A program made the position numbers. Source: Escherichia phage TL-2011a. Taken from it: 24,084 bases of DNA. Positions 15,001-18,000 of this stretch are shown piece by piece. The DNA lies in sequence record JQ011316. One strand, given 5' to 3'. Numbering within the stretch: position 1 is the stretch's first letter; every line of letters begins with the position of its first letter.

Positions 15001-18000
15001 AATAGCCAGGCAGTTATGCGATGACGGATTCCTGAACGAAGTTGAGATTACGCACCAGATGGTAACGTTCAAAGGGTATGAGATAAATCATCATGGTATA
15101 GCGGCGTATTGCTCCCATCTTCCTGATGACGTTGACATTGATGAAATGGAAAGGGAGATGAAGCAATGACCATCTACATCACTGAGCTAATAACAGGCCT
15201 GCTGGTAATCGCAGGCCTTTTTATTTGGGGGAGAGTAAATCGTGGCTGAGTTAATTTTCTCTGCATTGAGGATTCTCGGTGCTATGTGGATGGTGGCGAC
15301 ATTCATTGTTGTTGTCAGCAGTTTTGTCCGGTTGGTAGGCGAAGGTAAAGACCTGGTGGGTGTGCTTTTCGGTAGCATTCTCCTGTGGGTGATTATCGGT
15401 GTTGCGCCTGTTGCTGTAGCAAAAATGGCGTGGCGTTTTGTTAGTTGAGGTGACGATGAAGCAAATATCACTTCAATAAATCGCTTTTAAGGCATCACAA
15501 TCGCTCTGTGGTGAGGTAAGCACGTGCAAGGCATGTCGATAGGCAGCGAGAATGAAAAATGCGTCAGAATGCGTTTGAGGAGGTTTTAAGAAATGAGTAC
15601 GATAGCTGAGCTTGTCAGGGCTAATTTTCGTGAAGAGTTGGTGCGTTGGTATCGGTATCGTTCATCGTCCAGTTTGCCGCTTGATGAGTTGTATGAGCAC
15701 TCACCTGCCGCACGGCGCTATCCGCGTGACCGTGTTCTTCGACGGTTGTTCAGACTCAATAATGAGTTTCAGCGCAACAGAATTATCCGGAGTCTGGATT
15801 TAAAGTGAAGGAGTGAGCATGAGCGAGCAAATATTCAGAGAGATTAAGCCACGGTTTTATCGCAAGGTAAGGGTGGTTTATCAGGACGAAAACAAGACAT
15901 GTGCATACGCCATTCATAATGGTCGGTGGTCAGTGTTCGACACCAAAAACTTCGAGAAGAACTTCGAGAGGATTAAGGGTGATGAGGAAACTAACATTTG
16001 AACTAAGAAGCCCCATCCATCAGCAGAACGCCATTCAAGCTATCCAGCAAATTCTTCCAGACCCAACCAAACCAATCGTAGTAACCATTCAGGAACGCAA
16101 CCGCAGCATTCGGCAAAATGCACGCCTTCACGCGATGCTATCTGAAATAAGTAAGAAGGCTACATATCACGGAAAAGCAAGAAATATTGAGTTTTGGAAG
16201 GGGTTATTCGTTTCTGGTTGGCAGATTGCAACCAACCAGCACCCTGAGATTATATCAGGGTTAGAAGGTGAGCTAATAAACATCAGAGAGAGTACGGCGA
16301 CTCTATCTGTAAAAAAAATATCCGAAATAATGGACTACATAGAAGCATATTGTGCCATGAACTCAATTCATCTTAGCGAATGGAGGAATTATGATTGAGG
16401 TTTGGGTAGATATCGAAGGGATTCCATTTTATCAGGTTAGCAATAAAGGAAATTTCAGGTCTATTACGAGGGAAGTTACAGTAACATCAACCAGACAGAG
16501 GCCATATAAGAAAATAATTAATGGCACTAGTGTAAAACCATTCAAGTGCAAGTCGACAGGATATCTTCAAATAAAGGTATACGGTAAGAAATACAGCGCC
16601 CACAGGATAGTTGCGAAAGCATTCTGTACAGGGTTCTGTGATGGCTTGGTAGTTAATCACAAAAATGGGCGAAGAGATGACAATAGGGCTGATAACCTTG
16701 AATGGGTATCACATTCTGAAAACTCAAAACACGGATATAAACAAAATGGAAGAATACCTATATCGCTAGGTAAATTTAGTGGTGACCATCCTGCCAGTAA
16801 AGCTGTTATTTCTACTGACATGAAAACTGGGGAGGAGGTTTATTATGAAGCAGCTATGGATGCTGTCAGAGAAGGATTTGATAGTTCGTCAATTAGTCGT
16901 TGCTGTAATGGCGAAAGCTCATATCACAAAGGAAGATTCTGGCGATTTGCAAATGAAAAAATGAAAGCGCGATGGGGAGATCGGGCTGCATGACTATCAA
17001 ATCAAATACGCCAGCACACAACAAGGACTGCTGGCAAACGCCGCTTTGGCTTTTTGATGCACTGGATATTGAGTTTGGATTCTGGCTGGATTCGGCAGCG
17101 AGCGACAAAAATGCTCTGTGTGCTCACTGGCTAACTGAGGCCGACGACGCGCTCAATTCTGAGTGGGTAAGCCACGGTGCAATCTGGAATAACCCACCGT
17201 ACAGCAATATCAGGCCGTGGGTGGAAAAAGCCGCTGAGCAGTGCATACAACAGCGACAGACGGTAGTTATGCTTGTGCCAGAGGATATGTCAGTCGGATG
17301 GTTCAGCAAGGCTCTGGAGAGTGTTGACGAAGTTCGCATTATCACTGATGGACGGATTAATTTTATCGAACCATCGACGGGGCTGGAGAAGAAGGGAAAC
17401 AGTAAAGGCTCCATGCTGCTGATTTGGCGACCGTTCATCAGTCCTCGACGGATGTTTACTACCGTATCCAAAGCGGCATTGATGGCGATCGGGCAGGGCG
17501 TCAGGAGGGCGGCATGAGGCGACAGCGACGAAGTATCACCGACATCATCTGCGAAAACTGCAAATACCTTCCAACGAAACGCTCCAGAAATAAACGCAAG
17601 CCAATCCCAAAAGAATCTGACGTAAAAACCTTCAATTACACGGCTCACCTGTGGGATATCCGGTGGCTAAGACATCGTGCGAGGAATACAAGGGGATTGA
17701 CGCGATGATTTATCCGGGGCTATATTCCTCACACGCCAGCAAAATCTGGCGTCGGGATTGGCGTCCCGGATGAAAAAGGCGACAACAGACGCGCCAGCGT
17801 CTTTTTTATTGTCGTTTGCACAGTCACATCTCAATGGTGGGCTGTGTGGGGGCGGAGCAATCCGCGCCGGTTCCTTTTTCCCGGTTACGCCAACCCTGCA
17901 CAGTTCACCACCAAGCGATTGGCGTCGCAGGTGGTGATGATTCACAAAGAAAAAGGATCATCTTATGGCCACCAAAATCGCAGTTGAAACTCTTTCCCCG

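Follow-up and report, generated by a model that had tools for sequence, protein, structure and literature searches.

The window analyzed here, a stretch of 24,084 nucleotides of Escherichia phage TL-2011a (sequence record JQ011316), belongs to a Stx2a-converting lambdoid phage and encodes, head to tail on the + strand, the protein NinB (Orf), an HNH endonuclease and the phage DNA N-6-adenine methyltransferase Dam. We show that these three genes form a three-part mosaic in which 284 bp of a lambda-type ninB have given way to an 855-bp cassette: the resident gene has kept its first 42 codons, a foreign ninB segment with an early stop and the endonuclease gene follow, and the last nine codons of the resident gene are now read as the C-terminus of the endonuclease. 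We regard it as probable that this is the cassette of a free-standing homing endonuclease that supplies a substitute end for the gene it enters. Over positions 15800-17600, many Stx2a phage records show 100% identity to the window, and so do prophages of E. coli O157:H7 and O121.

Mosaic structure and the empty site

The hybrid ninB (15982-16398, + strand) encodes 138 amino acids with a NinB domain (PF05772; residues 3-130, E 2.5e-40, 137.8 bits against a cut-off of 23.8) that covers positions 2-129 of the 131 of the model, and its last residues before the stop codon are ...AMNSIHLSEWRNYD (...HLSEWRNYD). The endonuclease open reading frame (ORF; 16391-16993, + strand; 200 amino acids) shares 8 nt with ninB (ATGATTGA) and ends in ...RFANEKMKARWGDRAA, in a longer stretch ...EKMKARWGDRAA, that is in ...KARWGDRAA. 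The resident downstream gene is dam (16990-17517, + strand; Pfam Dam, E 8.8e-65). Both protein ends had been read in this way in the original prediction, a short note made from the sequence before our analysis, which also took KARWGDRAA for the C-terminus of lambda NinB. Indeed, lambda-type NinB ends in ...LALEWKARWGDRAA in HK97 gp61, in lambda Orf (PDB 1PC6) and in E. coli prophage L172 (NZ_AP022003.1). The resemblance is not due to chance, because at 16963 the DNA homology to phages that carry ninB and dam without the HNH gene resumes; it continues through dam at 97-99% identity, HK97 being 98.9% identical to the window over 16963-17050. The 31-nt tail segment 16963-16993 is identical to L172 at 30 of 31 nt and its homology runs on into dam. 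Within it lie the displaced last nine codons and the stop codon of the lambda-type ninB (16964-16993, + strand), and the proposal that they are read in frame as the end of the endonuclease is borne out by this DNA identity.

On the other side, lambda-type ninB genes (lambda, P22, HK97, Sf6, phi315 and many others) match the window ninB only over 15982-16107 (+ strand), which represents the resident codons 1-42, and all of these matches end at 16107. Compared with lambda Orf/NinB (PDB 1PC6), the first 42 residues of the window protein are of the lambda type; they are identical in L172, and P0114 differs at residue 2 only. Since the lambda-type homology stops here and codon 43 onward belongs to another allele, which we call type 2, the foreign block extends from 16108 to 16962 (+ strand). 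It comprises the type-2 ninB segment (codons 43-138 and the stop codon, 16108-16398, + strand) and the endonuclease gene up to ...EKM, has no homology to lambda-type phages and is rich in AT, with a GC content of 0.399 for 16108-16390 and 0.386 for the HNH part compared to 0.524 for the tail and dam. The same two edges are seen with HK97, phi315, Sf6, lambda and P22.

The best partner representing an empty site is prophage L172. Its lambda-type NinB of 146 amino acids is not associated with an HNH gene within ninB; the first 42 residues are the same as in the window (MRKLTFELRSPIHQQ...RNRS) and are followed by a lambda-type body and tail. The left flanks of L172 and the window are 97.6% identical (126 bp, 15982-16107; Sf6 reaches 96%) and the right flanks 98.8% (724 bp, 16963-17686), with the same 98.8% for dam itself. 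Between the flanks, 284 bp in L172 (GC 0.511) stand opposite 855 bp in the window (GC 0.391) without any similarity.

A simpler history had been proposed for this locus, in which a free-standing, AT-rich HNH element of about 580 bp (16384-16963) landed between the codon for Trp137 and the last nine codons, so that everything upstream of 16384 would be original. The KARWGDRAA tail is genuine and so is the AT-richness, which begins at 16108 and not at 16384; the right edge deviates by one base at most, and at the proposed point the type-2 and the lambda-type gene have 7 nt in common (...GAA TGG A in both). The left edge, and with it the size, did not hold. Alignment with ninB of lambda and related phages confirms the right edge at 16963 and moves the left one to 16108, as lambda-type homology ends at 16107 and not at 16383. 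Codons 43-138 encode a NinB subfamily about 45% identical to the lambda type at the protein level (about 30-35% to lambda Orf). In the protein alignment, ...NSIHLSEWRNYD of the window lies opposite ...HGVKWSDEARLA of lambda, with SIHLSEWRNYD facing GVKWSDEARLA and HLSEW facing KWSDE; the tryptophan in question therefore belongs to a SEW that comes about nine residues earlier than the LEW of lambda, which had been taken as the insertion point. The same early end followed by an HNH gene is also found in Salmonella, Yersinia and Pantoea phages without the KARWGDRAA tail. DNA breakpoints and protein alignment both contradict a simple 580-bp insertion, and we consider this history hardly credible. 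Among close relatives of the window we found neither an intact ninB lacking the KARWGDRAA end nor a full-length ninB followed by a separate HNH gene without the displaced tail.

The endonuclease and the early-ending NinB

The endonuclease contains a NUMOD4 domain (residues 3-63, E 1.4e-13), an HNH_3 domain (residues 69-112, E 2.4e-11) and a module similar to the NUMOD-like part of I-HmuI (residues 145-181, E 9e-4, below the Pfam cut-off). The HNH_3 catalytic motif (16595-16726, + strand) includes H71, H90, N98 and N102 and aligns with that of I-HmuI; in 44 homologues H71, H90 and N102 are invariant and N98 is nearly so. Overall, the protein matches I-HmuI, an HNH nicking homing endonuclease of Bacillus phage SPO1 (PDB 1U3E), with an E-value of 3.7e-14 (phmmer alignment over residues 55-186), and common to both are the HNH_3 motif and a C-terminal NUMOD-like module ending in HKG-x-x-W/F-R-Y/F. 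Judged by this match, the window protein is a direct homologue of the homing endonuclease I-HmuI, encoded by a free-standing gene, and the original prediction of a homing-type HNH gene in the 3' end of ninB finds support. The I-HmuI gene lies within a group I intron, whereas no intron is detectable in the window: a search of 15500-17600 for group I introns or other Rfam families gave no hit at E<=1 except a chance match to a snoRNA. An intron-encoded endonuclease was rejected on this result. The window protein further differs from I-HmuI by the extra N-terminal NUMOD4 domain and by its C-terminus. The alignment stops at HKGRFWRF (residue 186), four residues short of the end of I-HmuI, which leaves about 14 additional residues on the window protein, nine of them derived from ninB. 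A trait of I-HmuI-type elements that the locus displays is presence or absence at one fixed site between otherwise homologous genomes, here the window and L172.

Compared with the lambda-type end, the hybrid NinB is about 12 residues short, and the corresponding tail codons sit after the HNH gene instead. The window protein has no equivalent of the C-terminal helix alpha5 and the tail of lambda Orf, where R132, W137, R140 and W141 are located. Lambda Orf binds single-stranded DNA and SSB and has recombination mediator activity, and the alpha5 substitutions R132A, W137A, R140A and W141F modestly lower DNA binding (PMC4118853). The end ...RNYD had been regarded as an abnormal ninB terminus; HNH-linked type-2 NinBs from Salmonella, Yersinia and metagenomes, however, end in this way as a rule. 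NinB homologues with 58-96% identity to the window protein likewise end in W-R-x-Y-D/E or a close variant, the homologues P0002-P0018 have the same short end, and the type-2 NinBs of Salmonella SEN22, Yersinia kristensenii, Pantoea and the metagenomic phage contig L177 are cut short as well, each overlapping with an HNH gene of this clade. At the DNA level, the short end serves as ribosome-binding site and start codon of the HNH gene: as read from the sequence, GGAGG, 4 nt and ATG (16382-16393, + strand) lie within the last ninB codons TGG AGG AAT TAT GAT TGA. This layout is also present in SEN22, Yersinia and a metagenomic locus (L006).

Type-2 ninB and the HNH gene have evolved together. In 23 distinct gene pairs the identities of NinB body and HNH protein co-vary with a rho of 0.72, a value reached in none of 2000 permutations, and type-2 ninB and the HNH clade co-diverge down to about 50-60% identity. 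Comparison of the window with SEN22, Yersinia or Pantoea gave a proportion of synonymous differences (pS) of 0.78-0.97, which is saturated, and a proportion of nonsynonymous differences (pN) of 0.13-0.30 for the HNH gene, with the NinB body behaving likewise; both genes have therefore long been under purifying selection. In pairwise comparison, pN/pS amounts to 0.127/0.805 against SEN22 and to 0.226/0.973 against Yersinia, and the ratio of nonsynonymous to synonymous substitution rates (dN/dS) against prophage L173 is 0.18. The partnership is not exclusive, as the HNH gene has switched between NinB subtypes: at the Serratia locus L012, the HNH protein is 65% and NinB only 35% identical to that of the window. 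The association of ninB and HNH gene is old. The idea of a recent, fresh invasion of the phage's own ninB is not compatible with the saturation of synonymous sites.

Displaced NinB tails and other endonuclease cassettes

The C-terminal tails of the endonuclease were surveyed in 112 cluster representatives of the close HNH clade. They measure 1-29 residues, and 52 of the 112 end in AA, like NinB. Among the 69 tails with at least 8 residues, 14 match NinB C-termini at an empirical p<=0.01, for example ...FGTEHGVKWADEAKAA, ...SDASRLEIEWATRWGKS and ...GDRHGVRWSDEARA, to be compared with AFGTERGVKWSDEARLALEWKARWGDRAA of lambda. Distant HNH relatives that do not adjoin ninB end directly after the W-R/K-Y/F motif. 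Displaced ninB ends are a signature of the entire clade. At the level of the family, the core idea of the original prediction holds: an endonuclease gene is lodged in the 3' end of ninB and uses the cut-off tail as its own C-terminus. The window protein seems to carry two layers of such tails. The fresh layer is the lambda-type KARWGDRAA, which by its DNA identity comes from the recipient gene. The older one would be ANEKM (16949-16963, + strand), five residues past the end of the native endonuclease fold (HKGRFWRF); it is possibly the remnant of a former type-2 ninB tail, given ADERMAA and ANEKAAA at the C-termini of relatives and ...SERWAA at the end of type-2 NinBs that have a tail.

The tails might also have a role of their own. 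A domesticated HNH nuclease could work together with the truncated NinB/Orf mediator, for example by setting nicks or breaks that are processed by a NinB-loaded recombinase, and the NinB-derived tail could provide contacts to DNA or to a partner. Such a function would suit the long co-inheritance and the tight translational linkage of ninB and the HNH gene; moreover, the C-terminal helix of lambda Orf aids DNA binding (PMC4118853) and pieces of this helix are now found on the nuclease. However, the tails vary greatly in length, are often unrecognizable as NinB and in E. coli copies follow the recipient background and not the HNH gene. In its domains, the nuclease is built like intron-encoded and free-standing homing enzymes, and HNH genes of this kind also occur behind genes other than ninB. 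We consider a functional partnership improbable.

Gene ends of ninB have been exchanged in other ways as well. In a JGI metagenome (3300031084; L006:2910-3461), a tail-less type-2 NinB is followed at this very position by an endonuclease of 183 amino acids with HNH_3 and AP2 domains, which ends in ...AIEWASRFGDKQRAAA, again a NinB-like tail. The contig L104 (IMGVR_UViG_2751185961_000005; L104:1515-2505), whose NinB falls into cluster P0006, combines the 3' arrangement of the window with its mirror image at the 5' end of ninB. There, an HNH_3+AP2 endonuclease continues the reading frame of resident ninB codons 1-32, which show 100% identity to window 15982-16077, and after it a substitute ninB start (MKCVKYHLTNES...) leads into a NinB that is complete according to Pfam. 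Endonuclease cassettes that exchange the ends of genes thus seem to have landed in ninB repeatedly. Two further IMG/VR contigs (L115:1588-2639 and L118:2071-3130) encode HNH proteins with the NinB-derived tails ...RHGVRWSEPNPYEVTA and ...ERGVVWSDRARQEIVDDWESA behind a DUF1367 or an unannotated gene.

Free-standing homing endonucleases of the seg and mob type in T4-like phages carry out intronless homing with co-conversion of flanking markers (e.g. mobE, PMC2790892; reviewed in PMC2988022). The window resembles these systems in that the endonuclease gene interrupts host genes or lies between them, occurs in some relatives and not in others and takes its flanks along, with a presumed spread by break repair. 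Unlike seg and mob genes, the window element lies within the coding region at the end of a gene, for which it provides a substitute end; the displaced codons have joined the reading frame of the endonuclease, and the host belongs to the temperate lambdoid phages. A substitute C-terminal segment, an endonuclease ORF and a remnant of the native C-terminus also make up the mORF hybrids of fungal mitochondria (atp6 in Allomyces; atp6, atp9, cox2 and nad3 in Glomus; PMC3630166). Both share the three-part layout, and in both the native remnant has diverged less than the inserted part. The mORF hybrids encode LAGLIDADG or GIY-YIG enzymes, often in phase with the host gene, whereas in the window the enzyme is of the HNH type, the host gene stops and translation would restart via the 8-nt overlap. 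In addition, the remnant in the window consists of nine codons only, shares the reading frame of the endonuclease and also holds the ribosome-binding site of the next gene. The window shows the mORF layout without belonging to that family of elements.

Some neighboring genes may be mentioned here. Prophage L172, from E. coli WP3-W18-ESBL-08, encodes another NUMOD4 motif-containing HNH endonuclease after ninF (L172:2462-2648); endonuclease genes are therefore found at other gene borders of the nin region, too. In the window, an ORF of 62 amino acids without a Pfam hit (15813-16001) overlaps the start of ninB and is annotated in RefSeq, for the identical E. coli region, as a DUF7301 family protein. 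Downstream of dam and ninE, positions 17965-18639 encode a protein of 224 amino acids of the antirepressor type (ORF6N and P22_AR_C).

Spread of the cassette and its significance

Homing is the most probable mechanism and would proceed as follows. When lambdoid phages or prophages share one cell, the HNH protein would act as a site-specific nicking or cutting enzyme on HNH-less ninB alleles. During repair, the HNH-bearing genome would serve as template for the cassette, with 16053-16107 as the left homology arm and the 31-bp tail and whatever follows as the right one. The first 42 codons of the resident ninB would thereby become the N-terminus of a hybrid NinB, and its last nine codons and stop codon would become the C-terminus of the endonuclease. 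Co-conversion of the linked type-2 ninB segment would provide a working and presumably uncut NinB. A promoter-like site on the + strand and a terminator were sought in 15500-17600 and neither was found, and a cassette with signals of its own was rejected on these grounds. None would be needed if ninB, HNH gene and dam are translationally coupled in the nin operon. The old ninB tail contains a predicted ribosome-binding site for dam together with the overlapping stop and start codons (GGGGAGA, 9 nt, ATGA; 16974-16993, + strand). As the end of ninB encodes the start of the HNH gene and the old tail encodes the start of dam, the three genes would stay translationally linked, and the in-frame read-through of the HNH gene into the old ninB stop codon would preserve the coupling to dam.

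Exchange of the cassette between genomes has left traces in E. coli. Of 5426 complete E. coli genomes, 77 carry the 855-bp patch, which is always entire and at least 98.6% identical and occurs in Shiga toxin-producing (STEC) as well as non-STEC strains; some part of a 2.1-kb ninB-dam query is matched by 2164 genomes. We further compared 14 E. coli-type loci, namely 13 viral contigs and prophage L173. Their patch is about 98-100% identical to that of the window, the 5' 126 bp of ninB are either 98-100% or 81-87% identical, and the next gene is dam, ninE or another one. Two identity classes in these 126 bp imply that at least two 5' alleles are involved. The differences between 5' alleles are confined to the first 72 bp or so, and the 55 bp from 16053 to 16107 are conserved in all alleles, so that left crossovers probably occurred there. 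Substitutions in the 31-bp tail track the downstream context, which places the right exchanges in the tail or at its border. Homing and ordinary recombination would account equally well for one patch with recipient-type flanks in several backgrounds.

Alternatively, the pair could be passive cargo: type-2 ninB and HNH gene would be shuffled by ordinary homologous recombination at conserved gene borders, the HNH protein would no longer drive the spread or never have done so, and the tail would be kept only because it holds the ribosome-binding site and the start of dam. The crossover zones in conserved sequence, the heavy shuffling of lambdoid nin regions (PMC4118853) and the low prevalence of the patch are consistent with such a course. 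Decayed copies are consistent with it as well, among them the frameshifted E. coli HNH variants of clusters P0124, P0125 and P0127, several of which end in ...KEDSGDLQMKQ, and the IMG/VR locus L106, where an insertion of about 1.3 kb lies within a copy of the window HNH gene. On the other hand, purifying selection has acted on the HNH gene, with intact catalytic residues, across a saturated synonymous divergence. Several unrelated NinB subtypes harbor the HNH clade at an identical ninB position, with switches between them, right crossovers have repeatedly fallen within the 31-bp tail, and a second endonuclease family is found at the same site (L006) and in the mirror-image 5' arrangement (L104). 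In the light of these points we judge a purely passive module unlikely, although it is the alternative that deserves the most serious attention.

Several observations nevertheless weigh against a homing cassette. Both edges of the patch lie in sequence conserved among ninB alleles, so that Red- or RecA-mediated mosaic recombination of lambdoid phages could have produced them without an endonuclease. The right junction between EKM and KARW shows no clear microhomology; the 1-2 nt at most that the two sides have in common are uninformative. The presence of the patch in few of the genomes that match the ninB-dam query does not look like strong drive. At four loci (L003, L107, L109 and L115) the HNH gene follows a DUF1367 gene and not a truncated ninB. 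The SEN22-type end ERMAA, compared with EKM-KARWGDRAA, may be ancestral, a 21-nt deletion derivative or the product of a second recombination. A further point concerns the relation of tail length and HNH presence. Of the 17 distinct NinBs preceding this HNH clade, 15 end within six residues of one profile position, and HNH-less lambda-type proteins run 12-13 residues further; tailed type-2-like NinBs (L174 and L176, ending in ...VSERWAA and ...KKWSARWGA) are followed by ninG or ybcO and not by an HNH gene. Tail and HNH gene thus seem opposed, tailed NinBs being mostly without and tail-less ones with the endonuclease, but as the loci were mostly fetched through the HNH gene the sample is biased and the counts are suggestive only. 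Exceptions exist in both directions. The tail-less type-2 NinBs of L007 and L008 have no HNH gene behind them, and in the IMG/VR contig L127 (L127:2088-3010) a full-length NinB (...DKRAA) is followed, via an ATGA overlap, by an HNH gene whose product is 43-48% identical. In L007 and L008 (2501-3095 in either; human gut metagenomes), the NinB end ...LSTWRTYND overlaps a 60-residue ORF (MIDWRYYMAKP...) without a Pfam hit, which perhaps reflects loss or replacement of an HNH gene. The HNH protein of L127 ends in ...WRFADERMAA like that of SEN22 despite the distance between them.

Going beyond the window, an I-HmuI-like HNH clade in Enterobacteria, Pseudomonas, Aeromonas, Achromobacter and others may be specialized for the 3' end of ninB/orf and may have spread as gene-end replacement cassettes, in which the displaced tail would be kept as homology arm for the next homing event, as downstream ribosome-binding site and as coupling stop codon. 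The HNH_3-AP2 family would proceed likewise at this site and, mirrored, at the 5' end; the whole would be the first phage counterpart of the fungal mitochondrial mORF hybrids and offer a tractable homing system based on lambda. This wider view is plausible and tentative, and we hold it with somewhat less confidence than homing of the window cassette. Free-standing homing endonucleases and gene-end replacement are both known ideas, and in kind this is an ordinary selfish-endonuclease story and no new type of system; new are the phage setting and the specialization for ninB. In our literature searches no account turned up of HNH genes within ninB, of hybrid ninB or of NinB-derived HNH tails, the nearest being a figure in which HNH boxes are drawn in nin regions but neither named nor discussed (PMC4118853); in databases, the gene already carries the annotation of an HNH or NUMOD4 protein.

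The findings account for the oddly annotated pair of 'NinB' and 'NUMOD4 domain-containing protein' that recurs in Stx2a phages of O157:H7, O121 and other E. coli: the ninB alleles of these phages are hybrids built around an endonuclease gene. The combination of a substitute gene end with a captured native end ties phage biology to a pattern that so far came from fungal mitochondria. If the endonuclease is active, the locus would provide an easily tested lambdoid homing system, with lambda genetics at hand and an obvious empty-site target, as well as a concrete mechanism for part of the mosaicism of the nin region. It would also represent a natural experiment on the function of Orf/NinB without its C-terminal DNA-binding helix.

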